64,000 nucleotides of DNA from a candidate division FCPU426 bacterium (GTDB lineage Bacteria > Oederibacteriota > Muellerivitia > Muellerivitales > Muellerivitaceae). The notes beneath the pieces are model-generated. The model was not told the DNA's origin. It was given only the letters and a program-made list of their open reading frames with translations, and made no database searches. The DNA lies in contig CAWCKJ010000001.1 in assembly GCA_963796105.1 (NCBI GenBank), positions 1-64,000 of the forward strand, written 5' to 3'. A program made the position numbers and the translations under genes. Shown here piece by piece: positions 33,800-53,257 of this stretch (within the stretch, counting starts at the first letter, position 1; every line of letters starts with the position of its first letter).

Positions 33800-34213
33800 T
33801 TATTTTAAAAACTCCTTTGCCAAATCCTCTGCTTTGTAAACCAGATAAGGCCAGGTCATTTCACCAACTGTAGGCTTTTGAAAAACCCAAAACAAGAGTT
33901 TTGAATTATCATCCGGGAAAGTAAGTAATCGGAGTTGTTCCTTTGTAAAACCTCGGACAACATATTTTTTTATGTCCTGTTCTTGACGGGTAGAACGAAA
34001 AATCTCAGCATCGGTTTCTCTGAAAAATAATGGGAGTGCCATTTGAAAATCCTGTGATTCCACAAGGATAACGTAAAAGTTGCCGGTAATTTTCCCATTG
34101 GACAATTCCATCAAACCCCAAAAGGGCTGTCCCTCAATATTCTCATCAGGAAATAATTTCTTTAAACGCTCGCCTAAATCCTTTAAGAAGCCTTTTTTAT
34201 CCTTTCCGTTCAT
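33800..34213 (-). CDS. hypothetical protein
   Basis: 137-aa ORF with AAGGA RBS, downstream of the XRE gene. Confidence 0.6.
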   Translation of the reverse strand: MNGKDKKGFLKDLGERLKKLFPDENIEGQPFWGLMELSNGKITGNFYVILVESQDFQMALPLFFRETDAEIFRSTRQEQDIKKYVVRGFTKEQLRLLTFPDDNSKLLFWVFQKPTVGEMTWPYLVYKAEDLAKEFLK

Positions 34214-34263: not shown

Positions 34264-34575
34264 TTATTTGAAGTTTTTATAACCGCCAGGAACTGAATCA
34301 TCTGGAAAAAAATCATGTATTGAACAGTCAAAGACTTTCGCAAGCTTGAATAAGACCGTAGAAGGTACACGTATTTCTTTATTTCTTTCCCATCGCTGAA
34401 CCTGCCTTGGCTCCACGTCCATTATTACGGAAAGATCCTCTTGGGTCATTTTCCTTTTGCACCTTATTACAAAGATGCGACGCTGAATTTCTTCAAAAAA
34501 TGATTGTTCAGAAGGATATGGATGAGCCATTAATTTCATGCTATTCCAACTGAAATAATTTTTTAAGGTCTTCAA
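34264..34575 (-). CDS. XRE-family HTH regulator divergent from operon copy 1
   Basis: R..RKMTQEDLS......RQVQRWE...LFKLAKVFDCSI.DFF; start uncertain. Confidence 0.8.
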   Translation of the reverse strand: MKTLKNYFSWNSMKLMAHPYPSEQSFFEEIQRRIFVIRCKRKMTQEDLSVIMDVEPRQVQRWERNKEIRVPSTVLFKLAKVFDCSIHDFFPDDSVPGGYKNFK

Positions 34576-34702
34576 AAGACGTGGTGTTCCTTAAGAAATA
34601 ATTCAAAACTACCTCCTAGTCATACGGGCAAAAACCAAATGGAAGTTGAATGAAAACTTTGGTTATGCGGTGGGAGCCCGTAGGCGCTTATGGAGGGTTA
34701 GT

Positions 34703-35785
34703 ATGAAAAGGGATTCAGCTATTATTTTGGGATTATTGCTGACTGCAACTTCTGCTTTAATTTGTTCAATAGGCTGTCAAAACAAAGGCCCTTCCAACCC
34801 TTACGACTTACCTTTTACCCCCACTCCTACCCAGATCGTTCATATCACGGGATCAGTTAGCGCTTTTGCGCAAGACAAAGGTTTAGCCGTTCCGGGCCTT
34901 TTAATTCAAGCAATACCACCCTCAGCCGTTACGGTTTACAGCCAGTCAACTACTACAAGCGGAATAGCGACTTTCAACCCGCCCTACCTGGAAGTGGGGA
35001 ATTGGACATTCGTTGTACCCGCCCAAACGCCCTTTCCATTTGCCCCCAGCACGATCACCATGCCGGTATCCGTTGCGAACGAAACGGCCAATTTCAATTC
35101 AGCGGGAGTCACAATTCAGATGACCCCGCCTATTCCCGCCGCTTATACGGGAACAAATGGCGGAGTATTTGTTTATGGGCTTGCATACACCCAACCCGGA
35201 AGTCTTTTAGTTCCGGTTAAGTTGGGCTTTCCTTCTTTGCCCCCTAATTGGAGCAGGTCTTATTCCCCGACCACCATTGGGTATGTCTCGAACGATTCCG
35301 CCACGGTAACAATTACCGGCTCTTCCTGTGTGGATCAGCCACTCAGCTTTGCCGTGACAGCACTTGACCTGGAACCCACACCTTATCCCAGGGCTTATAG
35401 CACCCCTCAAACCATTACTAAAAACTTTACTTCCACGGTCACGGTGTCTTGGTATTCCCCAAACTTCAACAATATTTCAAATTGCAATGTCGAAAGGCAA
35501 TCCAACGCTGGAACCCTCACGGTCTCAAGCACAAATTCTTGCGCCACGGTGAATGTTTGGATCAATGAACCTTCCACCAATTGCACTTCCGGCTCATGGA
35601 ATACCCCAAATGGGAATACAAACGCCGAAGGCGGGGTGATTTCGTTTGGCCCTGGCTCTTACTCCTGTCAGTACACCAGTGACGGGGGATTCCCAACGTT
35701 TCATGCTTCTTGTAGCAGTAATGGAGCTTCCGGAAGTGTCCAAGTTGGGAATGGAACCTTTACGGTTTTAAACACGGGTTATTGA
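34703..35785 (+). CDS. lipoprotein with conserved N-region and variable Cys-rich tip, paralog 1
   Basis: RBS GGAGGG, lipobox-like SIGC, PTPTP linker, beta-rich Thr/Ser/Gly body. Confidence 0.8.
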   Translation: MKRDSAIILGLLLTATSALICSIGCQNKGPSNPYDLPFTPTPTQIVHITGSVSAFAQDKGLAVPGLLIQAIPPSAVTVYSQSTTTSGIATFNPPYLEVGNWTFVVPAQTPFPFAPSTITMPVSVANETANFNSAGVTIQMTPPIPAAYTGTNGGVFVYGLAYTQPGSLLVPVKLGFPSLPPNWSRSYSPTTIGYVSNDSATVTITGSSCVDQPLSFAVTALDLEPTPYPRAYSTPQTITKNFTSTVTVSWYSPNFNNISNCNVERQSNAGTLTVSSTNSCATVNVWINEPSTNCTSGSWNTPNGNTNAEGGVISFGPGSYSCQYTSDGGFPTFHASCSSNGASGSVQVGNGTFTVLNTGY

Positions 35786-35800
35786 GGAGGGGTACTCATC

Positions 35801-36895
35801 ATGAAAAAAATAACTTTAACCATCTTTTCGTTTTTAATGACGTTCCAAATCTTCTTATCCTTTTATGGGTGCAACAACAAGAACAGCCCTGCCACACCCT
35901 ACGACCTTCCATTTAGCCCCACACCAACCCAGATCGCCCACGTTTACGGCCCGGTCATGGTTTCGGTTATTGATAAAAATTTAGCCGTACAAAGCGTGAC
36001 GGTTTTAGCAATACCGCCTTCTGGGTCTGCCACTTTTTCGGGGGCAACAACGACTACGGGGATCGCAACCTTCAACCCGCCCTACCTTGAGGTGGGAAAC
36101 TGGACTTTCATTGTTCCACAGCAAACGGGTTTTCCCTTTGCCCCCTCCACCATCACGATGCCGGTTTCTGTTGCCAATGAGCAGGCCGGTTTTAATTCTG
36201 CCGGTGCAACAATTCAACTGACCCTTCCGGTGCCTGCGGCTTTTAGCTCTACCAATGGCGGGGTTTTTGTTTATGGGGTTGCATACAACCAGCCGGGAAG
36301 TCTCTTGGTGCCAGTCCAACTTTCCTTGTCCAGTCTTCCAAGCAATTGGAACTGGGGTTCCTCGCCAACCACCCTTGGCTATTCGGCAAGCGTAACCGGG
36401 GCCGTGACAATTACAGGGGCTTCCTGCGTTGATTCCTCACCAAACTTCACGGTTACGGCCTTTGATTTTGAACCCACGCCCTATCCAAGGGCATCGAGTT
36501 CTCCCCAAACGATCAGCAAGAATTTCACTTCTAACGTTACGGTTTCTTGGAACACAACGGGCCTCAACTCTAGTTTTTGCAACAACGGGACCGCCATTGG
36601 GATTGTTTACGGGACCCTTACGGTTTCGACCTCCAACGCTTGTTCCTCCACGGCTGTTGTATCAGTTTCCATGAACGCGGGAAATTGTTGTTACAGCCGT
36701 TTCGCCACCCCGAACGGGACCCAGAGCGGTGCTAATTGCGGGGGAGGGGGCATCCAATTCGGGCCGGGGAGTTATTCCTGCGAGATCGACAGCGGGGCCA
36801 CTTGGGGGGCTTTGAACTGCTCTTTCAAAGGAAATTCCAACACGGTCAACGTGCCCACTTCCGGGTCCGTGCAGATCCTCAGCGTGAATTATTAG
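35801..36895 (+). CDS. lipoprotein with conserved N-region and variable Cys-rich tip, paralog 2
   Basis: FYGC lipobox-like; shares GIATFNPPYLEVGNWTF and FPFAPSTITMPVSVANE with paralog 1. Confidence 0.8.
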   Translation: MKKITLTIFSFLMTFQIFLSFYGCNNKNSPATPYDLPFSPTPTQIAHVYGPVMVSVIDKNLAVQSVTVLAIPPSGSATFSGATTTTGIATFNPPYLEVGNWTFIVPQQTGFPFAPSTITMPVSVANEQAGFNSAGATIQLTLPVPAAFSSTNGGVFVYGVAYNQPGSLLVPVQLSLSSLPSNWNWGSSPTTLGYSASVTGAVTITGASCVDSSPNFTVTAFDFEPTPYPRASSSPQTISKNFTSNVTVSWNTTGLNSSFCNNGTAIGIVYGTLTVSTSNACSSTAVVSVSMNAGNCCYSRFATPNGTQSGANCGGGGIQFGPGSYSCEIDSGATWGALNCSFKGNSNTVNVPTSGSVQILSVNY

Positions 36896-36905
36896 GAGTG
36901 AAAAT

Positions 36906-37661
36906 ATGAAGTTTCATTATTGGTTGGGGCTGGTTTTTCTATTAACCGGATGCGAAAAGGGTCCAGCCGGACCAACGGGACCGCAAGGCCAACCGGGGGC
37001 GGGAATTCCCGGATATTCGGCGGAGTTTGAAAACGGCCTTTACCCTGACAGTGGGTATGGCGGATGCGATCCCCATTGGCTGGATGGTGGAAACCCCAAT
37101 ACGGCACAGGGGACCGGCCAGATTGAGGTTGCCACGGGAGCGGCAAGTTCCAATGTGGCTTTAGGCTTGATCCGTTTCAACCTTTCCTACGCCGTGCCTT
37201 TCAACGCGACCATCACCTCTGCCAGCCTTCAATTGACGACCCAAACCACCACTACCCTTTCCACCGGAACCTATGTTTTGGGGGCGCATCAAGTAATACC
37301 ACCGCCCGCAGGACAAGTGCCCTGGAACGATTCCAGCACTTGGAACGTGGTGGTTCCTCCGTATGGATGGAACGGAGGGTCAAGCTCACCTATCACCGCC
37401 GGAATGGATTACAACGCCACGCCTATTGACGCCGTGACCATTACCTCTTCTCAGGTCAATTCCAACCAAGTCCTTTTGGCTTGGAACATTACCCCTTCCC
37501 TTGCCCAGGTATGGGTTAACCCTTCCAACAATAATTACGGGGTTTTGATTTCCCCCGAGCCCGAGACGAGTGGAACCCTATCGGGGTTTATTTCCTTTTG
37601 GGACAACACCGGAACCAACCAGCAGAAACCGAAAATGCTGGTTACCTACACCATTCCATAA
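36906..37661 (+). CDS. lipoprotein with short collagen-like repeat and DNRLRE-like beta-sandwich
   Basis: LTGC lipobox; GPAGPTGPQGQPG; LIRFNLS...ATITSASLQL, NNYGVLI, PKMLVTY. Confidence 0.72.
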   Translation: MKFHYWLGLVFLLTGCEKGPAGPTGPQGQPGAGIPGYSAEFENGLYPDSGYGGCDPHWLDGGNPNTAQGTGQIEVATGAASSNVALGLIRFNLSYAVPFNATITSASLQLTTQTTTTLSTGTYVLGAHQVIPPPAGQVPWNDSSTWNVVVPPYGWNGGSSSPITAGMDYNATPIDAVTITSSQVNSNQVLLAWNITPSLAQVWVNPSNNNYGVLISPEPETSGTLSGFISFWDNTGTNQQKPKMLVTYTIP

Positions 37662-37670
37662 GGGGAAAAA

Positions 37671-38888
37671 ATGAAAAAATTAACTTTTATCGTGATCCTT
37701 TTAATTTTGTCTATTTCGGGACCAGTTTTCGCAAAGACCAAGCCGAAACTTACCCCCACTCCCAGCCCTTCACCCACCCCGCCGCCTAAACCAAATTGGC
37801 TTCCGCCCCCCCATGTGGATAACGACTCAAAAGCGCTTAACGCAACGGTGGCGGCCCATTATTCAACGGATGCTTCCGGGACATCAGGTTATGGCTTGTT
37901 TGATCTTTCGGCGATAAGGAAGTTGGATGAAAACGATGTTTCGGCAATGGGGACCATCCGCTTTAAAAAAGCCTATTCCAGTACGGATGAGGCCGGTGCC
38001 ATCGACTTAAGGGAAGCGAATCTTTCCCTATCCGAACCCTGGATGGAAGCCCGGATCGGTCGCATGGATTTATCTGATCTTGTCAGTACGACCCATTTTT
38101 TTGGGCTGTATCCCCTAATGGGAGAAAGACGGCTTGATGGAATCAAATTTTATCTTCCGTTCAAATTCTTTTTTGGGGTTGAGGATTACAAGAGCGTTTC
38201 AAGTCCACCTACTTCCTTGAGTTTCTTTTATTTTCCAACCCTTCTTTCCGCCCAAAACGCCATCCTCGACGGCTCCCAAGGGTTCTTTATGGGACAGGCA
38301 AGGATGAAGCTTAATTTTGGGGATTTAAGGACGGTTCTTCTTTTTAACTTGGGTGCCAGCTCATCCGATTATTTCCATTTCGGTTCCTTGAGTGGGAATC
38401 CTACCTATTCCATTTGCGGGGAAGCGAATTTCTCCAAGTTTTACACCCTTTACTTTGAATACGGTGTCCAGGATTCGTCCCATTCGGGCGATACGAACGC
38501 TTTTACTTTTGGGGCAAGGGTCGAACACCTGTTTACTTGGGAATTCCTATCCCTCGATCAGGTCACGTTTGAAGCCCAAATTCCATTGGCCGACAACCTG
38601 AACAACCCTTTCACCGGGGGTAACGGCATTAATCCTTCCCTGGCAATGTCCCCACAGATGGCTTGGTATGGAAAGGCAAGAGTGCGGATCAGATCCATAT
38701 TCATCGACTTTAATGTCACCAATACGGTGAACGACTTTACCTTGGCGCGGTTGAATTCCTCGAATATCAATACCCCTTTGCCAACTCCGGTTGGAAAAGG
38801 AAATGAAACGGATGGCCTAGAAATTCCGCTTTCGTCCTCAAGTTACAACAACATTGCTTTTGGAATCGATACGGGGGTTTCATTTTGA
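37671..38888 (+). CDS. putative outer-membrane beta-barrel protein
   Basis: Signal peptide, Pro/Thr linker, amphipathic strands, C-terminal FGIDTGVSF. Confidence 0.6.
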   Translation: MKKLTFIVILLILSISGPVFAKTKPKLTPTPSPSPTPPPKPNWLPPPHVDNDSKALNATVAAHYSTDASGTSGYGLFDLSAIRKLDENDVSAMGTIRFKKAYSSTDEAGAIDLREANLSLSEPWMEARIGRMDLSDLVSTTHFFGLYPLMGERRLDGIKFYLPFKFFFGVEDYKSVSSPPTSLSFFYFPTLLSAQNAILDGSQGFFMGQARMKLNFGDLRTVLLFNLGASSSDYFHFGSLSGNPTYSICGEANFSKFYTLYFEYGVQDSSHSGDTNAFTFGARVEHLFTWEFLSLDQVTFEAQIPLADNLNNPFTGGNGINPSLAMSPQMAWYGKARVRIRSIFIDFNVTNTVNDFTLARLNSSNINTPLPTPVGKGNETDGLEIPLSSSSYNNIAFGIDTGVSF

Positions 38889-39394
38889 GAACCATAGCCC
38901 CTTTGATTTTTTTCGTCACAAGTTCATATGCCTTCGCGGATGGGAACCCCTTTATGACCGTGCGGGACAGATACCAGTGGGCCATTGAACAAGTCATGCA
39001 ACACAAGGGCTCTCTTTATTCATCAAGTTCCAATACTGAAAATTCTCCCCAATCAGGGAAACATAAAAAAATAAACCAAGGCCCTGTCGCTACTCCCCAG
39101 CCCGTCTTCCAGACGCAAACCTTCAATTTTCAAACCGAAACCGACAAAGCCAAGATCAATGTGGCGATCACTAATTTTGGGACTTCTTTCATCATCGATG
39201 TGGTCAGCGACCAAGTAATCCAAGGGTGGTTATTAAAAGTTCAATCCGCCAGGGAAGTATTCCTGAAGGGAAGCGCCCCAAGTGACAACCCTTACAAATG
39301 CCGAATCCGGGTGGACCGCCCTTATATCAAGGACTTTGGGCTTACCGTTTATGTCACCCAGGACAGCGACCCGGCTTTTATTCAACTCTTTTAG
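38885..39394 (+). CDS. exported protein of unknown function
   Basis: Signal peptide (AFA-D); conserved in copy 2 (61102..61611). Confidence 0.75.
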   Translation: MRTIAPLIFFVTSSYAFADGNPFMTVRDRYQWAIEQVMQHKGSLYSSSSNTENSPQSGKHKKINQGPVATPQPVFQTQTFNFQTETDKAKINVAITNFGTSFIIDVVSDQVIQGWLLKVQSAREVFLKGSAPSDNPYKCRIRVDRPYIKDFGLTVYVTQDSDPAFIQLF

Positions 39395-39403
39395 GCGGAA
39401 TAG

Positions 39404-39853
39404 ATGGAAAACCAAAAACTGAAGTTAGAAAACCTAAAGTCATTTCACCCCTCGTTCTATCAATGCGTTCCGGTGTTTTTTATCCCATTCCCGTTGTTCC
39501 TCTTTGCCCTGTTGGGAGTCCGCCTTTATTACATCCTGATGTTTTTTTGGATCTTGGAATTGTCTTTCCTTTTTTACATCTGGGTTTTCCTCTCGACCAC
39601 CCTTTTCATCATCAGGCCCGACCGGATTGAGATTAAGACCGGGGTTTTCGTCAAACGGTCCCGGACGGTTCCTTTCGACCAAATCATCAACATTACCTGC
39701 AAACAAACCCTTGCACAAAAGCTTTTCCGAATCGGGGACATTTTCATAGATACACCCGGAGGGAAACCTTTTGAATTGGCCCTTGGGGGTATTGATAACC
39801 ATGAGGAAGTGGCGGAATTTCTCTTTGCCTTGAAGAAAAGAGGCAAAGCGTGA
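39404..39853 (+). CDS. membrane protein with bacterial PH (bPH_2/YdbS-like) domain
   Basis: Two TMs then IEIKTGVF...VPFDQI.NI...Q...QKLFRIGDI.I.TPG. Confidence 0.82.
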   Translation: MENQKLKLENLKSFHPSFYQCVPVFFIPFPLFLFALLGVRLYYILMFFWILELSFLFYIWVFLSTTLFIIRPDRIEIKTGVFVKRSRTVPFDQIINITCKQTLAQKLFRIGDIFIDTPGGKPFELALGGIDNHEEVAEFLFALKKRGKA

Positions 39854-40716
39854 ACCCTTTTCTTCCTGTGCTTTTGATTGTTTTTTTTGGGTGTCAATCG
39901 GTAATGGCCGACACCACTCCCAATGACCCTAAAACCGAAGAAGCGTTAAGGAATAACGTCATCGATTTTAGGGACTGGTTTATGAAACACCTTTCTCAAT
40001 TTCCAAAAGCCGATTCACATAGCACGGGGATGATGCCCCGAAATTACGCTTCTGTCCCAAAAAAGAACCCGACTTTCACTGCCAATCAGTACAACCAAGC
40101 GTCCAAATCCGATTGGGTGAAATGCCAAATAATGAATGGGCTTTCGACCTTGAGCCAGCAACTATCCAGTACGGCGGGAACGGCCTTTGCCCCCAATAGC
40201 GCGAATCAACTTCAACAAAACGCCGTCCAATTGCAACAAAGCAACGACCCTCAATTCCAACAAATAGGGGCGCTTTTTAGCCAACAAGCCCAAGCCTTGA
40301 AATCCGGGAATATCCAAGCCTCGGACCAGATAGCCAACCAAGTTTCAGCCATTCCACAACCCAACGTTCCCCCCGGATACCAACCGACTCAAGGCGAGAG
40401 CGCGATTGTCCAAGCCTTCAATCAGGTTATCGGAACCGTCTTGGCTGGTTTGGGTGGAGCCCTTGGTTCACTAGCCGTTGCGCAACTTTTACAGGCACTT
40501 GGAATCACCAACTTGGGTTCGCTTTTGGGCACGGGCCAATCAACAGGAAGCGCAATCGCGTTAGGGCAGAATCCGGGAGGGGCACTAAACACCGGGGGAG
40601 CCAACGTTGTTCAAACGGGAGGGGGAGCGTTGATGCAACAGTTGGGAAACGTCAATGTTAAACCGCTCCAACCACAAAATTCGGCTAACGCGGGTGGGCC
40701 GCCCCCAGCCCAATAA
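39850..40716 (+). CDS. exported Gln-rich protein with Gly-rich hydrophobic C-terminal half (possible VirB5/TrbJ analogue)
   Basis: Signal peptide, Q-rich helical centre, GLGGALGSL segment; conserved in copy 2; VirB5 role inferred from position only. Confidence 0.55.
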   Translation: MNPFLPVLLIVFFGCQSVMADTTPNDPKTEEALRNNVIDFRDWFMKHLSQFPKADSHSTGMMPRNYASVPKKNPTFTANQYNQASKSDWVKCQIMNGLSTLSQQLSSTAGTAFAPNSANQLQQNAVQLQQSNDPQFQQIGALFSQQAQALKSGNIQASDQIANQVSAIPQPNVPPGYQPTQGESAIVQAFNQVIGTVLAGLGGALGSLAVAQLLQALGITNLGSLLGTGQSTGSAIALGQNPGGALNTGGANVVQTGGGALMQQLGNVNVKPLQPQNSANAGGPPPAQ

Positions 40717-40739
40717 AAATAAAAAATCGGAGAAATTAA

Positions 40740-41102
40740 ATGAAAAAATCCAATTTTATGAATCATGTGAAACGGGCCGTGATGACGGCCTACCTTCTCA
40801 TTTTGGCAAGTAAGGCGCATTCGCAAGCGCTTACCAGTATGCCGGAGCTTTCACCCGTGAAACTGATGATTCTTTTTGTCCTTGATGCTTATGGGGTCTG
40901 GAAACTTTTGCAATGTATCAAAAATGTTTTGGATCACCTTGCCGATTCAAGCAAGGGGGACCCGACGGCGAAAGACCGGATTTGGGGAAGCGTTCTGGCT
41001 TTCATCGGGATTCTCATGGTGGGAGTCATGATAAATGTACTTCTTCTCAAGGCGGGGGAATTTGGGGCGAAGCCGGTTAGCTCAGTCCTGTCCGGGAATT
41101 GA
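40740..41102 (+). CDS. VirB2/TrbC-like pilin candidate
   Basis: 120 aa; long signal peptide ending AHS-Q, two hydrophobic helices around a charged loop; upstream of VirB6/B3/B4-like genes. Confidence 0.55.
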   Translation: MKKSNFMNHVKRAVMTAYLLILASKAHSQALTSMPELSPVKLMILFVLDAYGVWKLLQCIKNVLDHLADSSKGDPTAKDRIWGSVLAFIGILMVGVMINVLLLKAGEFGAKPVSSVLSGN

Positions 41103-41109
41103 TCCAACC

Positions 41110-43021
41110 ATGAAAAGAGTATTTCTTCTACCCTTGATTTGTCTTTGCCTTGGGGCATCCACCGTTAGGGGGGTTACCGTGTTATCGACCGATAGCGGCC
41201 CCTCCGAGCAAAGCATCAAGCAGGGTGTCAGCGACGGGATTTTTGACACCATGGCAAAACACGCCGGGGATTGGGTCGCTAATGGGATGGACAAAATCGG
41301 AAATTGGGCCTTGAAAACTTTATTCGGGATTTACGACAAATATATTGGAACCTTCCTGATTAAGATCCCCGATTTAGCTTCTCCCCAGACTTATACGGCT
41401 TTAGCCAACGGTTCACTAAACACTTCCGCTAACGCCGTCCAAGTTGTTTTAAACATTTTAAAAATCACCAGTGGGACAGGACTCTTCATCCTGATTGTTG
41501 GTTTTGTCATCGATACCGGCCAGAGGTCATCCGGCTTGTGGGATAGGTTTATAGATGGATCAGTCGTGATCGGATTTGTAGCGGCATTCCTTTTTCTTTT
41601 CGCTTGGCCGACAGTCAATTCCTACCTGACCAACGGCGTAACGGCAATGGGCTATTACATCTACAACCAGAACACTTTGAGGACTTCCGGGGTTTTGGAA
41701 GGAATCCAGAATATCGACCTTAATTCGGGGGGTGTAGCGAACTCCGTCCAATTGGCCCAATTTGACTTCCGGGGAAATTTCATCACCATCCAGGGAATCG
41801 TTTGGAACCTTATTTACCTTATTTCCATTTCCCTGGTCGTCCTGGGTTTCTACAACTGTTATTCGGCGGTGTCCGCGGGTGATTCCCAAAAAGGGAATTA
41901 TAAATTCTTCCAGGCCGTCGCGGGGATGATCCTGATTCTCGGTGTCCCGACGATCATCCACGTTTTCATCGCCAAGGGAGCCGATGCTATTGGGAGTCAA
42001 CAGGCCATTCCGGGCCAGACGCTAACCCCTTTTTCCTTGCGAGGACTGGTCCAGGATAACGGCGTTCAATATCCCCAGCAACAAGGGCAAGCCCCGCCCA
42101 ACATAGGAACTGCGGGGAACAGTACACAGGGTCCAGCCCAAAGCCGTATAGCTAAATTTTCCGCAGGTTTACTCAAGTGCGGGGTTTCGATTTGGGGACT
42201 CATCGTCTGTTTTTCCGTGATCTTCGCGAAGTTTTTTCAGGTTTTGAATATTTGGGTCATGTTCGTCCTTGGCCCCATTTTCATCGGGTGCCTTGGACAC
42301 CCCGCAACCTCTTCCATCTTTTGGGGCGCGGCCCGTTACTTCATAAAACTTATTCTTTATTCCGTGATTTGGGCCATCACCCTTAGTCGGCCTTTATTTG
42401 ATACCCAACATCAATTGGGGGGTGGAAACCATTGGGGTGAACAGTCTGTTGACGGCTATTGCGGTTCTGGCCGGCCTTCAAATGATCGCCAATGTCCAGG
42501 AGTTCGCTTCCTTATTCACTACCTTTTCGGGTGCAAACCTAAAAGGTGAAGGTTACAAGGAATCCTACCGTGATACCAAAGCAGCCTTTGGGTCCGCCAA
42601 TTCGATGCGTCTTGGAACTTTTGGAGCCCTGCAAGGTGCAACCGGTGAGACCAGTCAAGGAATGGCCGCCGCCACCGGTGCGGCGGTTGGTTCCATCATT
42701 CCGGGTGTCGGAACGGCGAGTGGAGCCTTGGCAGGACAAAAGACGATGAAGGGATTTAATGCCCTAGCCAAATTGGGGTCTATGGGTGGAAGAGGAAAAA
42801 ATGAAGAGGAATCGAAAAATCCGATTTCAAAAGCCATTCAAAATTTCTCAGGCAATGTGATCTCCAAGAATCTTAAAAAAGAAGACCAGCAAGGCAAAAC
42901 TTACACCTCGAATGAAATAAAAAAACGCCAACTCGTCAGCGAATACGCGAAAAAACTTCAAGGCAAGAAACCAAACGCAAAGCCGGGGGACCAGGGACCA
43001 AAAGGGAATAGGAACGTTTAA
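41110..43021 (+). pseudogene. VirB6/TrbL-like polytopic membrane protein, frameshifted near 42380
   Basis: Multiple TMs incl. FVLGPIFIGCL..P.T...FW; removing 1 nt joins ...WAIT to (L)VGLYLIPNINWG...; Gly/Ala-rich then basic tail; ATG 41110 matches copy-2 start 63305. Confidence 0.62.
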
Positions 43022-43312
43022 ATGGCGATACCGTTAGAAAAAGAATCCAAGATGTGGGGTCTCTTTTATACATCGGATTTTAACAAGTTGATGTTCGCCA
43101 CTATTGGGGACGCCTTTGCCTTCATGGCGTTTTTCATCCTCTGGGGCCTTGAAGGTGCCCTCGTTCTTTTCTTCGCGACTATGACCCTTGTGACCACTTA
43201 CTTCGTCATGAAGAGTTTTTGGCCTGAAAAATACTTTGAAAACATCGTCCGTTACCACAACGAACCTAAACATTATTTTCCCGGCGGGGAACCAAGTGAG
43301 TTTGAACTATGA
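43022..43312 (+). CDS. VirB3/PrgI-like small membrane protein
   Basis: 96 aa, E.KMWGL motif, two TMs, PKHY tail, overlaps the VirB4-like start. Confidence 0.6.
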   Translation: MAIPLEKESKMWGLFYTSDFNKLMFATIGDAFAFMAFFILWGLEGALVLFFATMTLVTTYFVMKSFWPEKYFENIVRYHNEPKHYFPGGEPSEFEL

Positions 43313-45876
43313 GAAACATTTTTAAATCAAAAAAGAAGCCGGTTTCAGTAGCGGGGTTACTCAGGATAAAGGCGGTAGGACCGGGTTACATCGTTTTAAG
43401 GAACCCGGAGCAATACGTTTCAATATTCAGGATTGCGGGAGGGTTGAATCCTTGGATGGAAGATCCGGATGTATTAGGGGAGAAAATCCGAAAGCTTGAT
43501 TCAATCCTAACGGATTTGAGAAGAGGTGAGGAAGTCCAATTCTTGACTAAAAGGATCAAGGCCGATCCTGAAGGCACTATTGAAAAATTCGATGAACGGA
43601 TTCACGACAATGCCCCGGAGGTTTTCAGGAACCAGTACCCGGAGTATTTAAGGAATTGGCTTAGGCAGTTCTACGCGCAAGAGAAGATATGTCACTACCG
43701 CTCATTCGTTCTATTTACTATTCCACCCCCTCGCTCTTCAAAACCCACCAAGGATTTCTTGAAGATCGAGGAGGTTCTTCGAAGGGGAAAATCCTGGGCG
43801 TCCCAACTCAATATGGTTGGAATGGATGTCCAGGAACCAACGGAAGAGGAGATTTACACCCTTCTTTATGAGGAGTTGTCCCAACAAAGATTTTATGGAA
43901 ACCCTGAAAGATTCAAGAACGCGGTGGGCTCCTCCGGTGGGGACTATGGGTTACAAACCCTAAGGGAGATGTTGACCACCTATCCTTGGGATTTTAGGGA
44001 GCCTAACTTCTTCAAAGTGGGGGATGTGTTTGGCAAAACCCTCTATGTGACCGAATTTCCATCGTTCAACGAGCAGAACCTTTTCTTTCAGGAGCTATAC
44101 GAGCTGACGGATGATTTCAAAATCTCTTTTTTCGTTAAGGGCGTGGATCTCTTTCGGGCTCAATCCATTGTTGAAAAGCAAATTCAAGGGGACCAGGGAG
44201 CCCTTTGGAAAAGAAAGAACGTCATGAATTTCGAGGCGAAAGCTTCGTTGGATTATCGCCAAAGCGTCCTTGAGCTTGTATCGGAAAGAAAGACTTCCCT
44301 AGCCAAATTTTCCCTCTACGTGACCCTCTTTTCCGACGAACAAAAAAAACTCATGACAAGTTTTGAGAGCTTGACCCGGATGTTCAAAAACGTTCACCCC
44401 TTATCAGGTTATGCCGAACAGAAGAGACTCTTTCTCTCGACCATTCCCCAGGCAACCGATGTAGCTTGCCACGAGCATCTTCAAGCCACTGCGGTCATCG
44501 CAAACGCGATTCCCTGTCTTTATGACCCCATTGCCGATACGGATGGAGTCCCGCTTGGCAAAACTCTTTCCGGTGAAATGGTTCAACTGAATTTATGGGG
44601 AAGGGAAACCGAAAACTGGAACGTTCTGGTGGTCGGCTCTTCCGGCACGGGAAAATCCTTCACCATCAACCAGCTTCTTATCAAAAATCTTGCGATGAAC
44701 CCCTATGTCATGATTATCGACAAATCCCAATCCTATAAAACCCTGTGTCGATTAGCCGGTGGGCGCTACCTGAATTACGACCTGGATAGTTCCCATCACT
44801 TGAATATCTTCGACTATCCAATCGATGAGATTAAGGAATTGGACGGGGAGATTGACCCGGATCATATCGCCAACATCATCATGTATTTGGGAGTAGTCCT
44901 TGCGAACATTAAAGATAACCGCATAGAGGAAGCCGAGGAGTTGGACAAAGCCCTTCTCCAAGAGGCGGTCAAACAGACCTATCGGAACAGCATTGGCGAG
45001 AAAAGGGTTCCTCTCTTGACCGATCTCAAGGAAACACTCTTAAAGATGGCCGATGACAAGAAAGTACCCGCCCAATTCCAATACATTTGCAGGAAACAAT
45101 CGGAAGTTTTGAAGTTATATACCGGCAAGGGGATGTACGCCAACCTGACCGACCGGGAATCGACCGTCAACGCGGACAACTCTTTTATTGTTTTCGATAC
45201 ATCGGGAATAAGTGATAACGACAAAAAAGCCGTAGGCTTGGCCGTCTTTGTGATCTCCAATTACTGCCTCAATAAGGCAAAGCAGAACAAGGAATTGAAC
45301 CGCCTATCCCAATTGGCAATGGATGAATGTTGGTATTTGGCCCAATATCCCGCAGGCCTAGCCTTCTTATTAAGAATCGCAAAGACCGCCCGGCATTTGA
45401 GGCTCCAACCCATCTTCGCCACCCAAGAGATAGGAGAGTTTTTCGGGGTGAAAGGTGTAGAAGCAATCCTCAAGAACACTTCCACAAAAATACTCCTAAA
45501 GCTGGTCGGGGACGACATTGACCACGCGAAGGGGCTCCTTCAATTAAATCCAACCCAAGTCGAGAGGGTAATGAATCTCCATTTGGTAAAAGGCGTTTAT
45601 TCACAAGCCCTGATCCACCAAACCCTTAGGCAGGGAATCGTGAACATTTTCCCCGATGAATTGGCCTATCACATTGCCACGACTTACGGCCCCGAGGCGG
45701 CAGTCCGCGACCATTACCTTGAAACCTATTCAAGCGAGGATGACCCTTTGACGACTCTTGGAGCTATCAGCAAATGGATTGAGGACAAGGAAAATAATTG
45801 TGTCCTGAAACCAACAATCAAGGATCAAGACAGATTGCCAATAGTTAAAAAGATCGAAGAGGTATTGATGAAATGA
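43309..45876 (+). CDS. virB4: VirB4-family type IV secretion ATPase
   Basis: 855 aa; Walker A GSSGTGKS, IIDK..SY..L....GG, Walker B MDECW, K.ARH, ATQ motifs. Confidence 0.88.
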   Translation: MRNIFKSKKKPVSVAGLLRIKAVGPGYIVLRNPEQYVSIFRIAGGLNPWMEDPDVLGEKIRKLDSILTDLRRGEEVQFLTKRIKADPEGTIEKFDERIHDNAPEVFRNQYPEYLRNWLRQFYAQEKICHYRSFVLFTIPPPRSSKPTKDFLKIEEVLRRGKSWASQLNMVGMDVQEPTEEEIYTLLYEELSQQRFYGNPERFKNAVGSSGGDYGLQTLREMLTTYPWDFREPNFFKVGDVFGKTLYVTEFPSFNEQNLFFQELYELTDDFKISFFVKGVDLFRAQSIVEKQIQGDQGALWKRKNVMNFEAKASLDYRQSVLELVSERKTSLAKFSLYVTLFSDEQKKLMTSFESLTRMFKNVHPLSGYAEQKRLFLSTIPQATDVACHEHLQATAVIANAIPCLYDPIADTDGVPLGKTLSGEMVQLNLWGRETENWNVLVVGSSGTGKSFTINQLLIKNLAMNPYVMIIDKSQSYKTLCRLAGGRYLNYDLDSSHHLNIFDYPIDEIKELDGEIDPDHIANIIMYLGVVLANIKDNRIEEAEELDKALLQEAVKQTYRNSIGEKRVPLLTDLKETLLKMADDKKVPAQFQYICRKQSEVLKLYTGKGMYANLTDRESTVNADNSFIVFDTSGISDNDKKAVGLAVFVISNYCLNKAKQNKELNRLSQLAMDECWYLAQYPAGLAFLLRIAKTARHLRLQPIFATQEIGEFFGVKGVEAILKNTSTKILLKLVGDDIDHAKGLLQLNPTQVERVMNLHLVKGVYSQALIHQTLRQGIVNIFPDELAYHIATTYGPEAAVRDHYLETYSSEDDPLTTLGAISKWIEDKENNCVLKPTIKDQDRLPIVKKIEEVLMK

Positions 45877-46472
45877 GTGCACCAAACGAAAAAGATGATT
45901 TGAAATTTCTGGAAAAGTTGGATGAGGAGCCGAAAAGGTCGGGGTATACCACAACCATTCTCATCGCCATTTCGTTTGTGGCCCTTGGAATCGCAACGAC
46001 TCTTTTTTGGGGGCGGTCGAAGATTTTCAATTCTCCCCAAACAAAAGTATCCGATACGAAAGGCCAACTAGCGGTACAGCAGGAATCCCAAAATACCGAA
46101 ATTATCAACTTCGCAGAAAAATTCACGATCATGGTTTTTAACGTGAGCTATACGGATATCAACCACCAGGAAGGCAAGGTTGCGAACCTCATGAGCGACA
46201 ACATGATGTCCTACTACCAGGATGCTTTCCTGGACCCAAAGTGGATTGCTTTCTTAACAGATAACAAAGCCTATGTCACATACCAGGGCATCGAGAGATC
46301 AACGGTTGAAAACACTGATGGAACCCATTATTGGGTTCGTGTCATCGGCAAATGCCTCTACAACTCCGATGCCAAAGGCCCAAACTCCCAGATTGAATTG
46401 CCGTTCCACTTGGTAGTGGTCGTCAAGAACGACAACGGAAAACTCATCGTTACTGATTTTCAGAGGTTATAG
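45873..46472 (+). CDS. bitopic membrane protein, VirB8/TcpC-like NTF2-fold candidate
   Basis: Single TM, then FAEKF...FN.SY helix and beta-rich C-terminus; directly after virB4. Confidence 0.55.
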   Translation: MSAPNEKDDLKFLEKLDEEPKRSGYTTTILIAISFVALGIATTLFWGRSKIFNSPQTKVSDTKGQLAVQQESQNTEIINFAEKFTIMVFNVSYTDINHQEGKVANLMSDNMMSYYQDAFLDPKWIAFLTDNKAYVTYQGIERSTVENTDGTHYWVRVIGKCLYNSDAKGPNSQIELPFHLVVVVKNDNGKLIVTDFQRL

Positions 46473-46474
46473 CC

Positions 46475-46828
46475 ATGGAAGAACTTGTTTTGCGGATCAA
46501 CCCCCAGCTAGCCAGGCGCTATATGCAAGCGGCAAATTTTTACATTGAAACCAATCGTTATCTTGTGACTTTAAAGCTTTTTGAAGAAGTAGTAGGGAAA
46601 TACGAAAAGAAAAACAACATAGGGAATTCCGAAGTTACCTGGATTTATGCCAAGTTCAGAAAACCCAATGGCCTATTAAAAACGATAAACCGTCTCAACG
46701 ATTTCTTCCCTGCGTTTACAAAAAGAATTGCCTTTATCGCGAGAGCTCAATTTCTCTTGGGAATATATGTTTTTTCAGTAAAAGACGAACATGGAAAATT
46801 GATAATCACGGATTACAAAAGGCTTTAA
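46475..46828 (+). CDS. chimeric ORF from a local tandem duplication
   Basis: N-part resembles the start of 46832..48304; last 16 aa resemble the end of 45873..46472. Confidence 0.65.
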   Translation: MEELVLRINPQLARRYMQAANFYIETNRYLVTLKLFEEVVGKYEKKNNIGNSEVTWIYAKFRKPNGLLKTINRLNDFFPAFTKRIAFIARAQFLLGIYVFSVKDEHGKLIITDYKRL

Positions 46829-46831
46829 TCG

Positions 46832-48304
46832 ATGGAAGAAAACGTTTTGCAGATAAACCCGGAATTAGCCCGAAGGTGCCTTCAATCGGCCCATCTATAT
46901 ATGGAAACAAACCGTTACCGGGAAGCCTTGAAGCTTTTTGATGATGTTATTGGCAGGCATCAACCCCAAAACGTTGAGGCTCACCTTGAATCGGCGAAGA
47001 TTTACGCCAAATTCAAGAAACCTAACTCCATTTTAAAGGTAATCACCCGCCTCCATAATTTCGCTGAAAAGACTCCCGAAAGCCTTGTCTTGCTTGCCAG
47101 AGCCCAATTTCTCCTTGAGCTTTATAGCGATTGCGAAGAAACGTTAAAAGAAATCTTTTCCAAGACAAGGGACTTTCCCGAAGCTGTCGCCTTGGAAGGG
47201 GAATTGTTTGTCCACACCGGGAGATATGAATCCGCAATTGAAAAATTTGAAAGTCTTAGCATTAGGTATCCAAAAAATTACAACTACCTGGCTCTTTTGG
47301 CCCTTGCCCAATATGTAGGGGGACGATACCACCGGACGATCACCAATTGCACAACGATCATGAAAACCGGGTTTGCTGATCCTAAAGTCACGAAATTGTA
47401 CGAAATGGCGAGGAAAAAGAAGCGCCGGGAAGCTTTGGGAAAGTTGAAAAAGGTGAAGCCCCTCAAATGGCTTTTTGCCCACCTATTTGACCCGTTCCTT
47501 GAAAGCGAAATGAGGGCTGAATCGCAAAGCCAAACAACCCAGGAGGATCTTGTCCAGGAAACGTTGGTGGATCACAGGACGGGCCTTTTCAATGATCGGG
47601 CGGCTACTCAACAAATACCAGCGCTTGCGGCCCGTAGGAAGGCCCAGTTTTTCTTGACCATGGCCGATATCGACTTTTTCAAATCATTTAACGACGTCCA
47701 TTACAACCATCAAGTCGGCAACGCTGTTTTAAAAGCCCTTGCGAAAGCGGGACAGAAAATCTTCTCAAAAAACAATATTTGGCGGTATGGGGGAGAAGAA
47801 ATTGTTTGGGCCGTGGATAGTTCTGAAGACCAAGTGATCGAAAAAGCCGAACAATTCAGGAAATATTGCGAAGAAAGCGTGGTCGAAGAAGCCAATGAGA
47901 TTATCAAGAAAGAGGGAATTAAGCATTTTGCGGACGGATTGGACCATAAAAAAGACGAAACCTTCTATATCTACTACCCGGTAACCATCAGCCAAGCCAT
48001 TGTTCAATGGGGCGAAGATGGGACAAACCTGGAAAGCGTCCTTACGGCGGCGGATAAGGGCCTCTATACCGCAAAGGAAAGCGGTCGTAATGCCGTTGTC
48101 TACAGGGGCACTCTCAAGAGTAGAGGGAAGCGGCCCATTAAATACACGCCTGAAATGCTCGGAATTCTTCACGACCAGTCCGTTAAAAAAGGTTCGCCCC
48201 ATTGGTGGGCTCAAATGAAAGGCCTTTCCGATAAGTCACAGGAAGAGGCCCTTGAGTACGCGAGGAATACCTTGAGCAATAAGGAGGTGCCAACGAAAAA
48301 ATAG
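46832..48304 (+). CDS. TPR-repeat plus GGDEF-domain protein
   Basis: TPR-like helices, D..TGLFN, DIDFFKSFND, RYGGEEI, VTIS, AD..LY.AKESGRN. Confidence 0.88.
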   Translation: MEENVLQINPELARRCLQSAHLYMETNRYREALKLFDDVIGRHQPQNVEAHLESAKIYAKFKKPNSILKVITRLHNFAEKTPESLVLLARAQFLLELYSDCEETLKEIFSKTRDFPEAVALEGELFVHTGRYESAIEKFESLSIRYPKNYNYLALLALAQYVGGRYHRTITNCTTIMKTGFADPKVTKLYEMARKKKRREALGKLKKVKPLKWLFAHLFDPFLESEMRAESQSQTTQEDLVQETLVDHRTGLFNDRAATQQIPALAARRKAQFFLTMADIDFFKSFNDVHYNHQVGNAVLKALAKAGQKIFSKNNIWRYGGEEIVWAVDSSEDQVIEKAEQFRKYCEESVVEEANEIIKKEGIKHFADGLDHKKDETFYIYYPVTISQAIVQWGEDGTNLESVLTAADKGLYTAKESGRNAVVYRGTLKSRGKRPIKYTPEMLGILHDQSVKKGSPHWWAQMKGLSDKSQEEALEYARNTLSNKEVPTKK

Positions 48305-48342
48305 TTCGTGCCGCAGGTCAAAACAATAAAAGGAGAAAGAAA

Positions 48343-48645
48343 ATGGGCTTAAAAGTCAGGATTACCAGGATGTTTCCGTATGACGGGGAACACACGAAGG
48401 CTTTTGTGGGAGCTAAGGTGCAAATATCAGGTCGAGTCTTTGGTTACAACGAATTGACCCTTGTAAAAAAGAAGGAAGGCAATGGGTTGTTTCTGGGTCT
48501 TCCCTCAAGACCGGGAAGACAGGAGGGGGAATATCACGATATTTGTTATATGGACCCGAATACCCGGAAGGAGATTGAAAAAGTCGCCATTGCTGAATAC
48601 GAGAAGAAGTTAAAGGAAAACAAGCCGCCGGAAGTCCAGGATTAA
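48343..48645 (+). CDS. SpoVG-like nucleic-acid-binding protein
   Basis: KAF, GLFLGLPSR....GEYHDIC, R.EI...AI.EY; RBS AAGGAG. Confidence 0.75.
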   Translation: MGLKVRITRMFPYDGEHTKAFVGAKVQISGRVFGYNELTLVKKKEGNGLFLGLPSRPGRQEGEYHDICYMDPNTRKEIEKVAIAEYEKKLKENKPPEVQD

Positions 48646-48675
48646 GTGATGGTGATCCTTGGTTGGAGAAATTTA

Positions 48676-48950
48676 TGAGCGAGCGTAGGAAAAACGACCG
48701 ACGGAATAAGAACCAAGATTACCTTATGACGGACGGCCAGATTGCTAATTTGGCGGGAGTGTCGATCCATACCGTCAAATATTGGCGGATGGTCGGAACC
48801 CTGCCATATGTAAAAGTCGGTCGTCATCCAAGGATTTGGTTTTCTGTCTTTCAAAAAGCTTTTCATAAACCTGATGCAAATGGCCCTTGGGAATTGACGG
48901 AAAAGTTTGGTAAAATACCTCCAACAGGGGACATTAGGAGGAAGCGATGA
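48676..48950 (+). CDS. excisionase-like HTH protein
   Basis: LMT...IANLAGVSIHTVKYW...G.LPYVKVGR; overlaps integrase start. Confidence 0.78.
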
Positions 48951-50038
48951 GCAAGCCTAATGTTTATGGATTGCCCCAACATCTTCGCAAGGATGAGTGG
49001 GGTTATTTTCTGGATTATTTTGTTGAGGAAGGAGGGAAAAGAAAACGAAATAGGGTAAGGCTGGGAGAGATTCCCTTGGAAAAGGCCAAGAAGATTTTGG
49101 CCCAACACATGCAAGCCATTGTTGAACATAAATTTTTGGACGTTGATAAGCCAAGGATTACTTTCAACGAGGCCGCACAAGGGTTTCTGGCTTACTCAGG
49201 GTCAAGAAAGAAAACTTTCAAAAGAGATGGGGAGATAGTTGCTTGTCTCGGAAAGTTTTTCGATAACCGGCCCTTAGAAAGCCTGTCACTGGACCTGATC
49301 GAGGAATATGTCACGCTCAGGAGAACACAGCGACCTACCATAATGGGCTCAAGCCTGAACCGTGAGATTGCTTGTTTGAAGGCGATTATCAATCGAGCGA
49401 TTCGGAACGGACAGCTTGATAAAAACCCGATTTCGTTCTTTAAGTTTTTTAAGGAAACACCGCGAAGTAGGACGCTGACTCCGGACGAATTTAGGCGCTT
49501 ATTGGAAAAATGCTCGGGGCGCACCAAGATTTTCGTGCATTTAGCCTATATAACTGCCATGCGCAAGGGGGAAATTATCGGGCTTCGTTGGGATCAAGTG
49601 GACTTTCAGCACAAAGTAATTGTTCTGGAAGCGGCTGATACCAAGACTTTGGAGAAAAGGGAAGTACCTTTGGACGAAGCGTTAATGGATGTGCTTCGAC
49701 AGGTTCCCAAGACTCTGGGAAGCCCATTCGTGTTTACCTTCAAAGGTAAACCCTTCGGGAACATGAAGACGAGCTTTAACACGGCGTGTAGGCGGGCCGG
49801 AATCAAGGATTTTCGTTTCCATGATCTCAGGCATTGCGCCATCACGAACATGCGGAAAGCCGGGGTTCCCGATAACGTGATAATGAGCATCAGTGGTCAC
49901 AAGACGACCGCTATGTTCCGGCGTTACGATTCGGTTGATAGGGCAGATCGTCATAAGGCCTTAGAGCGGTTAAGGCTGAATGACAAGTCTCTAGAATTGA
50001 ATGACAACCTTATGACAACTGGGAGTCAAAAGATTTAA
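48947..50038 (+). CDS. phage/ICE-type tyrosine integrase
   Basis: TAMRKGEI..LRW, TKT, FHDLRH, ISGHKT..MF.RY; N-terminal arm-binding-like region. Confidence 0.93.
   Translation: MSKPNVYGLPQHLRKDEWGYFLDYFVEEGGKRKRNRVRLGEIPLEKAKKILAQHMQAIVEHKFLDVDKPRITFNEAAQGFLAYSGSRKKTFKRDGEIVACLGKFFDNRPLESLSLDLIEEYVTLRRTQRPTIMGSSLNREIACLKAIINRAIRNGQLDKNPISFFKFFKETPRSRTLTPDEFRRLLEKCSGRTKIFVHLAYITAMRKGEIIGLRWDQVDFQHKVIVLEAADTKTLEKREVPLDEALMDVLRQVPKTLGSPFVFTFKGKPFGNMKTSFNTACRRAGIKDFRFHDLRHCAITNMRKAGVPDNVIMSISGHKTTAMFRRYDSVDRADRHKALERLRLNDKSLELNDNLMTTGSQKI
49977..50019. repeat. short direct repeats, possible integrase arm-type sites
   Basis: TGAATGACAA at 49977 and 49998, TATGACAAC at 50011. Confidence 0.45.
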
Positions 50039-50123
50039 GAGAGTCATGGCTCCTAACAGAAAAGGGTATGTTTTAAATGGTTTTTTTGAGGAGAGCAACG
50101 TACTTTTACTCTTGAGGTCGTTG

Positions 50124-51719: not shown

Positions 51720-51806
51720 TAAATGATATTCTCTTAATAATCAGTCTTAGTGTTTCAGGGCACTATTTTCGGGGACTCAAGTAGTTTTTACTGAGAGGAG
51801 TTAGAC

Positions 51807-51965
51807 ATGGCTTCAAAGAAAAAGGTTTCATTTTGGGCAACAGAAGTAAAGAAGGTGCCTGTAAGAGTAAAGTTCACTACTGCCGATGGTAGAAAAATAT
51901 CCTTTACTGGCACTAAAGCCGTCAGCAAGGATGTACGGGTAAAATTTAGCGCGAAGAAAAAGTAA
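51807..51965 (+). CDS. small basic protein (52 aa), not in the ORF track
   Basis: RBS GAGGAG; MASKKKVSFWATEVKKVPVRVKFTTADGRKISFTGTKAVSKDVRVKFSAKKK; TAATG overlap with the PIN gene. Confidence 0.7.
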   Translation: MASKKKVSFWATEVKKVPVRVKFTTADGRKISFTGTKAVSKDVRVKFSAKKK

Positions 51966-52474
51966 TGAAGACTCAAAAAGTTTATCTGGACACTTCAGTT
52001 TTTATGGCAGAGTTTAATAAAAAAGATCCACGTCATTGTCTATTAACCGAATTTTTTAACGAAGCTAAAAAAGCACAAGACATTGAATTGTGTTCATCAA
52101 AATGGGCTTTAACCGAAATGTATAATCGTTTGACAAAAGATCAAATCGAAGAATTAAAGATTGTTAAGTACATCAAAGATTTGCTCGATAAAAATACAAT
52201 CAGAAGTATCAAATTAAGATTTTTAGATGTTAGTCCTAATAAGGAGTACAACTTCAACCACTTCTTTAATCATTTAACAGGTGATCTGATTAAATTTAAA
52301 ACTGGTCCTAATAGACCCGGTTTGGGGGATATTCTTCATATAAGGATAATGAAGAATAATAGAGTGAATAAAATAATTACTTTTGACGCTGACTTCGAAG
52401 TAATTGAAGGCTTAACGACTATAAATCTACATAAAACTAAAATAAGCACGGCGTTACCAAAGATAATAATTTAA
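51965..52474 (+). CDS. PIN-domain (VapC-like) ribonuclease
   Basis: VYLDTSVF, LTE, GDILH, ITFDADF acidic tetrad. Confidence 0.82.
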   Translation: MKTQKVYLDTSVFMAEFNKKDPRHCLLTEFFNEAKKAQDIELCSSKWALTEMYNRLTKDQIEELKIVKYIKDLLDKNTIRSIKLRFLDVSPNKEYNFNHFFNHLTGDLIKFKTGPNRPGLGDILHIRIMKNNRVNKIITFDADFEVIEGLTTINLHKTKISTALPKIII

Positions 52475-52548
52475 TTGGATAAACCTCTTCTCGGGTTCTC
52501 TGGAGATTTGATTTGTTGAATTTTCTACTTTATTAGGAAATAAATGAC

Positions 52549-53256: not shown

Positions 53257-53257
53257 A

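Follow-up and report, generated by a model that had tools for sequence, protein, structure and literature searches.

A 64,000-nucleotide stretch of a candidate division FCPU426 bacterium genome (assembly GCA_963796105.1, contig CAWCKJ010000001.1, positions 1-64,000 of the forward strand; hereafter the window) carries an operon built around the ATPase VirB4, which runs nearly without gaps on the + strand from 34646/34703 to 50038 in the open reading frame (ORF) listing. On balance, we read this operon as the mating-pair module of a tRNA-targeting integrative and conjugative element (ICE), with a VirB4 lineage of its own and an outer-membrane barrel module in place of the VirB9/VirB10 ring, which was not detected. 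Complete elements of this type in a related genome are bounded by attachment (att) repeats and carry a coupling protein gene and a relaxase-like gene at the end opposite to the operon. That such an element exports DNA by conjugation, be it through this module or through a core complex too divergent to be recognized, we consider very probable. Below, G000 is the window's own genome (completeness 96.8%), other G-numbers are related genomes and C-numbers are contigs, the window's contig being G000:C1.

Eight classes of mating-pair formation (MPF) systems have been described (PMC3548315, PMC12282955), and the eight-class scheme expects few more from uncultivated clades (PMC3548315). Our best reading of the operon, from sequence comparisons, is a candidate new MPF class that would cross the outer membrane without VirB9/VirB10. 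No description of the system was found in the literature, most subscription papers and supplements being outside reach.

Complete elements and their probable transfer genes

The near-closed, five-contig genome G002 has two whole elements in tandem at tRNA-Thr(TGT) on contig C4. Their att repeats, 54-62 bp long, lie at 131787, 197213 and 245911 and bound elements of 65.4 and 48.7 kb. Each consists, from left to right, of att, a type IV coupling protein (T4CP) gene, a relaxase-like gene, cargo, the operon, xis, int and att, and the VirB4 of the second tandem element is 93% identical to that of the window. From this layout, the T4CP gene of an excised circle would come ~0.3 kb after int, in the same orientation. 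A sequence-only reading of the window had proposed an integrative element and recognized neither a relaxase nor VirD4. The integrative element is borne out by these att repeats and by the right junction of the window copy; the absence of relaxase and VirD4 fails, because the complete G002 elements carry a T4CP gene and a relaxase-like gene at their far left end. Both kinds of genes are also present in G000, on contigs other than that of the window.

In G000, PF10412 has ten matches in nine open frames, and PF12696 matches coupling proteins too. Behind each of the PF10412 matches lies a gene for a protein of 270-300 aa that starts with a winged helix and has a conserved His and a PDG..E.E motif, which we take to be linked to MOBC relaxases. 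The best Atlas clusters for this family score 0.94, with Replic_Relax on 17-29% of their members, and the motifs and these clusters fit a putative Replic_Relax/MOBC-like relaxase. Relaxase profile matches occur in 17 of the 20 genomes that have the VirB8-like gene of the operon; two of the remaining three have T4CP matches, and in the last one the operon tail encodes a PDG-motif protein. Integrase arm-type repeats lie upstream of T4CP genes of the relevant clade in G000 (5/5), and three of these T4CP-side repeats match arms behind the operon integrases of C3 or C16 (18/18, 22/22 and 21/22). A divergent clade has ParA/B, T4CP and relaxase genes downstream of the operon, within ~4-13 kb, and in distant families the operon ends with TopB or SSB.

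The right end of the window copy is a 7-bp att core (50124-50130, +) that matches the anticodon loop of tRNA-Thr(CGT). X1 and X2 contigs depart from the window at 50130 into the 3' half of tRNA-Thr, the C13 copy ends alike, and an arm-type direct repeat (49997-50021, +) recurs at the junctions of C13 and C15. In the window, the core falls within a gene for type ISP restriction-modification; the reading frame of this gene continues through the core, and its C-terminal remnant spans 50131-51719 (+; PF18135, E 2e-107). We infer that this gene was a secondary integration site of the window copy; its N-terminal half was not found, nor was the left end (attL) of the copy. With its presumed secondary location and its frameshifted VirB6 gene, the window copy may depend on sister copies.

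Elements with T4CP, a relaxase-like gene, xis and int only (G000:C13 63853-74390, C15 52269-57538 and C4 440347-451740) sit at tRNA-Asp, -Thr and -Ser. These are likely integrative and mobilizable elements (IMEs) using the T4SS (type IV secretion system) in trans. At G000:C6 309341-317000, a gene for a 1299-aa protein, a Cas4/Cas1-like gene and repeat-spacer DNA lie just upstream of a T4CP gene, possibly a CRISPR system on an element, with labels given by inspection.

VirB4 lineage, inner-membrane machine and predicted outer-membrane module

VirB4 (43309-45876, +) has intact Walker A (residue 443) and Walker B (residue 671) motifs and matches P-loop_TraG with E 3e-26. None of the NCBIfam class models scores over its cut-off, the best being TraC-F with 195 of 567 bits, and identity to the best plasmid VirB4s is 22-28%. 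G000 has six VirB4 genes, two of them in operons that begin within the window; four are 82-100% and two are 32% identical to that of the window. In a quick tree, 19 VirB4 sequences of the phylum formed one clade (SH-aLRT 99), as did 12 sequences in a mixture-model tree (100/98) from which twelve rows (outgroups, long branches and near-duplicates) were omitted. The tree separates this clade, as a third lineage, from both {T, B, F} and {FA, FATA}; its union with F was borderline rejected (p-AU 0.047), and it stands outside the 10 FA/FATA-like rows (FA+FATA split support 88/83). A separate VirB4 lineage is thus upheld relative to the T, F, B, FA and FATA references, and a position inside a described class found no support among these, C and G not being sampled. 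T, B and I were represented by a single reference each, and the set had no Patescibacteria VirB4s. A new class is a candidate claim only, since the references are few and lack C and G.

Other parts of an inner-membrane machine lie on both sides of VirB4. The VirB2-like pilin (40740-41102, +) has no T4SS_pilin match on its own and was recognized from an alignment of relatives, with T4SS_pilin in 4 of the 14 (best E 1e-5) and TrbC in one. The VirB8-like bitopic protein (45873-46472, +) was placed by profile comparison (IcmL-like 5cnl, E 2e-4; R64 TraM, E 8e-5; also PrgL and TcpC), so the earlier pilin and VirB8 labels hold through alignments of relatives. The VirB3-like small membrane protein (43022-43312, +) fits in size, hydrophobicity and position before VirB4, which is kept across copies, but has no match in Pfam/NCBIfam. 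The VirB6-like gene (41110-43021, +; TrbL, E 6e-8) is of the extended type, ~630 aa in intact copies and a single frame in three close paralogs, and here is split by a frameshift near 42380 into two ORFs, 41035/41110-42549 and 42398-43021. A related contig in run X1 has one base fewer at 42380 and the paralogs are intact, so the frameshift is either an assembly error or a strain lesion. The Gln-rich exported protein (39850-40716, +) is possibly a VirB5-like minor pilin: of 20 references, R388 VirB5 matches it best (E 0.006, HHalign probability 4%), and a structure-database profile search gave no PDB relative. As the earlier reading had it, no operon ORF matched the VirB11 or VirB1 families in Pfam or NCBIfam.

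A TPR-GGDEF protein (46832-48304, +; RYGGEE motif intact) follows VirB8 throughout the phylum's copies. The GGEEF-type motif is intact in all close copies, which suggests control of transfer by cyclic di-GMP (c-di-GMP). Just upstream of it is a TPR-only partial duplicate (46475-46828, +; 51% to the N-terminus of the GGDEF protein), overlooked in the earlier gene list.

On the outer-membrane side, the host is diderm, with BamA in G000 at 538 bits, over cut-off. VirB10 homologs are reported from all diderm MPF classes, the reach of PF03743 is reported to extend to TraB and TraM (PMC4027160), and an outer-membrane core complex (OMCC) is reported for all Gram-negative T4SSs (PMC12857230). In sequence-level searches, the VirB10 family PF03743 matched 0 of 99 phylum genomes (controls positive, 2/14) and the VirB9 family CagX had no match in G000. 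Compared with VirB9/VirB10-type references (R388, R64 and an F-like TraB/TraK-type plasmid), the barrel, exported and Gln-rich proteins gave probabilities of <=4%; the same comparison recovered the VirB8 and pilin relatives, which served as controls. Judged from the ORFs, no VirB10-sized bitopic gene is left over in the operon. The lack of a recognizable VirB9/VirB10 is therefore sustained, and these mostly sequence-level comparisons give no support to the barrel or exported protein as a VirB9, VirB10 or TraN homolog.

Structure predictions covered two operon proteins, the barrel and the exported protein. For the barrel (37671-38888, +; 405 aa), AlphaFold2 predicts 16 strands with pLDDT 85, and the protein earlier called beta-barrel-like has a predicted porin fold. 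Its best structural matches are porins (OmpM1, Z 20.2, rmsd 3.6, 269 aligned), the Atlas clusters agree with a porin-type reading, and the C-terminal Phe, F405, is invariant (35/35 aligned). The protein belongs to no Pfam family, and its own family is small, with 56 representatives when clustered at 50%. The barrel gene is within 25 of 26 VirB4-selected operon copies with visible upstream DNA, a count from which G025:C12 (contig begins in VirB6), G019:C81 (truncated VirB4) and G018:C27 (an unrelated FATA-like system) were left out beforehand.

The exported protein (38885-39394, +; 169 aa) has a predicted N-terminal helix and an Ig-like beta-sandwich (residues 78-169). It is genetically tied to the barrel, behind which it also sits in resident modules. 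DUF3244 and C-terminal domains (CTDs) of the type IX secretion system (T9SS) are its top structural matches, with Z 9-9.6 (RemA CTD: Z 9.5, rmsd 2.1, 73 aligned), and VirB9 is not among the top 50. The host has 48 T9SS CTD matches; assignment of the exported protein as a host T9SS-type sorting domain was rejected on sequence grounds (HHalign probability 2.6%; host-CTD hidden Markov model E 0.24). A complex prediction for the barrel and exported protein scored 0.00, which speaks neither for nor against their pairing.

The lipoproteins are the most variable parts of the operon, with 51-57% identity between paralogs. Lipoprotein 1 (34703-35785, +), a candidate surface adhesin, has a lipobox Cys (invariant, 20/20 aligned), a Pro/Thr linker and a CnaB/adhesin-like domain, with a profile match to uro-adherence factor A (E 4e-6). 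Lipoprotein 2 (35801-36895, +) is its paralog (55% identity), and the two agree with the variable, adhesin-like lipoproteins reported before. A third lipoprotein (36906-37661, +), previously described by its collagen repeat, does have a short Gly-X-Y stretch but chiefly consists of a DNRLRE/CBM96-like domain (NF033679, E 4e-15); CBM96 was found in its C5 paralog.

The remaining genes are accessory or regulatory. A bPH_2 membrane protein (39404-39853, +; PF03703, E 3e-14) is mainly confined to the window's subclade. The operon closes with genes for a SpoVG-like nucleic-acid-binding protein (48343-48645, +; PF04026, E 3e-7), an excisionase-like HTH protein (48663-48950, +; HTH_17 E 4e-4 and TIGR01764 E 1e-3, both below cut-off) and a tyrosine integrase (48947-50038, +; PF00589, E 5e-31). 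Divergent from it is an XRE-family regulator (34264-34575, -; HTH_3, E 1e-9), upstream of which a conserved small gene (33800-34213, -; no Pfam match) is present with several operon copies. The gene order and nearly gap-free + strand arrangement are as read earlier; library matches in Pfam/NCBIfam confirm the XRE, bPH_2, TrbL/VirB6, VirB4, TPR and GGDEF, SpoVG and integrase labels, and the excisionase label has the sub-threshold matches just given. A promoter/terminator scan returned fewer sites than in shuffled sequence, and the operon was not usably covered by RNA runs X18 and X19.

Spread, further copies and surroundings

Of 61 sampled relatives, 19 have VirB4 matches; among 99 phylum genomes, 20 have the VirB8-like gene and 31 the barrel. 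Five families largely conserve a gene order of lipoprotein(s), barrel, exported protein, Gln-rich protein, pilin, VirB6, VirB3, VirB4, VirB8 and TPR-GGDEF, which is rearranged or partly lost in G050 and G031. Horizontal spread is suggested by VirB4 identities of 93% in two other genera as against 82% among G000 paralogs. The best labelled DNA matches were to peat metagenomes (X2, X5 and X7 among those compared).

The window holds not one operon, as listed earlier, but two. The second copy starts at 57461/57945 and runs on past the window's end at 64000 (+, with its XRE gene on the - strand); it encodes lipoprotein, DNRLRE, barrel, exported, bPH_2, Gln-rich, pilin and VirB6 proteins, and its VirB4 is 82.5% identical to that of the first copy. 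It looks intact, extends along G000:C1 to 68536 and, by synteny with G001:C19, probably continues at the C3 end to a tRNA-Gly-targeting integrase.

One RIT three-integrase element, which has terminal inverted repeats of 84 bp, opens both the window (1-3486) and G000:C16 (1-3484; 99.8%), and the two ardC halves flank it at the same end. This points to an invertible element through which C16 and C1 are linked. Since the RIT element and the ardC halves lie at the start of both contigs, the T4CP-relaxase pair of C16 probably lies ~22-24 kb before the window start. With such a join, a larger tRNA-Gly element, closing with the second operon copy, may enclose the window copy. ArdC, split by the RIT element, and RadC (3400-4752, +) are typical conjugative-element backbone genes. 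Between them and the operon, a cluster for polysaccharide biosynthesis that contains IS30- and IS256-like insertions (7605-29531) is probably cargo of the element. The type ISP remnant, a PIN protein and further low-GC defence-like genes (50046-54207) lie between the operon copies.

Parts of the operon also occur in other arrangements. In family f1, loci at G000:C4 665951-669486 (L012) and L109-L117 have a lipoprotein, a barrel and a TPR-fused exported protein but no VirB4, possibly an outer-membrane display or uptake unit. At L059 (G031:C30), the operon lies among housekeeping genes without barrel, lipoproteins or a neighbouring integrase and is possibly domesticated. L121 (G093:C105) has two barrel genes in the operon, with lipoprotein-like genes before each.

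Proposed mechanism, rival explanations and known systems

If the operon is the mating-pair module of an ICE, Int and Xis would excise a circle and so bring the coupling protein and relaxase genes to ~0.3 kb past int, with all of them on one strand, and completion of the transfer kit would possibly be tied to excision. The Replic_Relax/MOBC-like protein would nick the DNA, and the coupling protein would hand it to an inner-membrane complex of VirB3, VirB4, VirB6 and VirB8. VirB2-like and possibly VirB5-like subunits would build a short pilus or periplasmic conduit, and the TPR-GGDEF protein would link transfer to c-di-GMP. The barrel module (barrel, Ig-like partner and lipoproteins) would serve as outer-membrane exit and/or display variable adhesins for mating-pair contact. 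Other 16-strand barrels let polymers or unfolded proteins through, and by analogy this one may pass single-stranded DNA and unfolded relaxase. Alternatively, the channel may be a different assembly and the barrel may serve to display the lipoprotein adhesins; the resident barrel modules that lack VirB4, and the G031 operon with its missing barrel, keep this option alive. A ninth conjugation class in the full sense, having no VirB7/9/10 ring, with DNA and unfolded relaxase leaving through the element's own 16-stranded barrel under c-di-GMP control and MOB (mobilization) genes joined on excision, is an extension that we offer tentatively and with some doubt.

Several observations weigh against the ICE reading with a barrel in place of the ring. 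No excised circle was seen in the material, which consists of assembled contigs only. PF10412 detects no T4CP on the window's own contig, and the link from the window to the C16 T4CP depends on an inferred contig join. Pfam Replic_Relax (PF13814) has no match in G000, where controls were equally silent. The VirB4 tree lacks MPF_C and verified MPF_G references. The absence of VirB9/VirB10 rests mostly on sequence tests, the folds made being those of the barrel and exported protein. In 7 family-f1 genomes, barrel, exported protein and lipoproteins make up a resident module without VirB4, and ~10 barrel-positive genomes show no operon, so the module may have a transfer-independent job. In addition, the G031 operon has no barrel, and a pilus would not fit through a 16-strand porin.

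Among other explanations, the element could be an ICE whose core complex is present but unrecognizably divergent, hidden in the lipoproteins or in the Ig-like or Gln-rich exported proteins, the porin being an accessory comparable to the porin rings of Dot/Icm. The VirB9 C-terminal domain is a beta-sandwich, and the exported protein has one of ~90 residues. VirB4 is just 22-28% identical to plasmid VirB4s, so its partners may be equally remote, and VirB10 homologs are reported from all diderm MPF classes (PMC4027160). Porin rings encircle the OMCC of the Legionella Dot/Icm system (PMC12857230). Nevertheless, the silence of PF03743 in 99 genomes, the reference profile comparisons of <=4% that did recover VirB8 and pilin relatives, the porin fold of the barrel and the lack of a leftover VirB10-sized bitopic gene make a hidden core unlikely.

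A different role for the T4SS has less in its favour. An ICE-borne system chiefly for contact-dependent adhesion or protein delivery, with the DNA-processing module as passenger or secondary user, would suit the variable lipoproteins with their adhesin-like domain, the conserved TPR-GGDEF protein, the possibly domesticated G031 copy without adjoining integrase and the resident barrel-lipoprotein modules, and has a precedent in the relaxase-less T4SS of Patescibacteria (PMC12102498). We judge it improbable given T4CP and relaxase-like genes within the same att-bounded elements, the backbone genes ArdC, SSB, TopB and ParAB, and near-identical VirB4 across genera. DNA import of the Ced/ComB kind, with the porin as entry pore, seems hardly credible. 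The porin fold and the minimal set of pilin, VirB6 and ATPase suit uptake, and ComB shows that T4SSs are able to import DNA (PMC12857230), but CedD matched with E 0.018 and 13.7 bits against a cut-off of 600, compared with 195 bits for TraC-F. The system is also multi-copy, patchy (20/99 genomes) and integrase-bounded, unlike housekeeping uptake, and the linked T4CP and relaxase indicate export. The sequence-only reading had considered Ced-like uptake and particle extrusion; compared with either, conjugative export of the ordinary kind is by far the likelier, because in complete copies T4CP and the relaxase-like gene lie at the other end of the same element.

With diderm conjugative T4SSs (MPF_T/F/B/G/C/I; R388, F, CTnDOT, R64), the system of the preferred ICE reading shares VirB2, 3, 4, 6 and 8 in similar order, a VirD4-type coupling protein and an outer membrane in the host. 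It differs from them in undetected VirB9/VirB10, the lack of VirB11/VirB1 in the operon, its own porin-fold barrel, a separate VirB4 clade (22-28% identity) and a TPR-GGDEF gene fixed after VirB8. Monoderm MPF_FATA/MPF_FA systems (pCF10, pGO1-type, Tn916, pCW3) share the minimal inner-membrane set that lacks both OMCC and VirB11, an extended VirB6 and surface adhesins, and the VirB8 profile matches their PrgL/TcpC weakly. In contrast to these, the present host is diderm, there is no wall hydrolase, an outer-membrane barrel is present, and VirB4 is not nested among the references (split support 88/83). The Patescibacteria T4SS also has a VirB4 clade specific to its phylum, along with VirB2-like pilins, VirB3 and VirB6, and lacks a core complex, but is FATA-related, chromosomal and mostly relaxase-less (PMC12102498), whereas the operon described here is ICE-borne, with T4CP and a relaxase-like gene, in a host with BamA.

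Other tRNA-targeting ICEs and IMEs with T4CP and a Replic_Relax/MOBC-like relaxase likewise have a tyrosine integrase with Xis, a tRNA att core, tandem arrays and MOB-only satellites; here, however, the MOB module occupies one end and the MPF module the other, so that only attP brings them together. The barrel resembles 16-stranded porins (OmpM1 8bym, OmpT 5oyk, the OmpF family) in predicted fold (Z ~20, rmsd 3.6-3.7) but is ~9-14% identical to them, has no Pfam family and is encoded in a T4SS operon. Taken at the level of sequence and prediction, the outer-membrane architecture is unlike that of every class described in the literature compared.

A phylum-wide family of mobile ICEs in a diderm host, with undetectable VirB9/VirB10, challenges the expectation that few further classes await discovery and is at odds with the universal OMCC reported for Gram-negative T4SSs (PMC12857230). 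It offers a small gene set for studying how T4SS substrates pass the outer membrane and what role T4SS-associated porins play. These elements carry 30-50 kb of cargo, and profile-based annotators would probably overlook or misclassify them.

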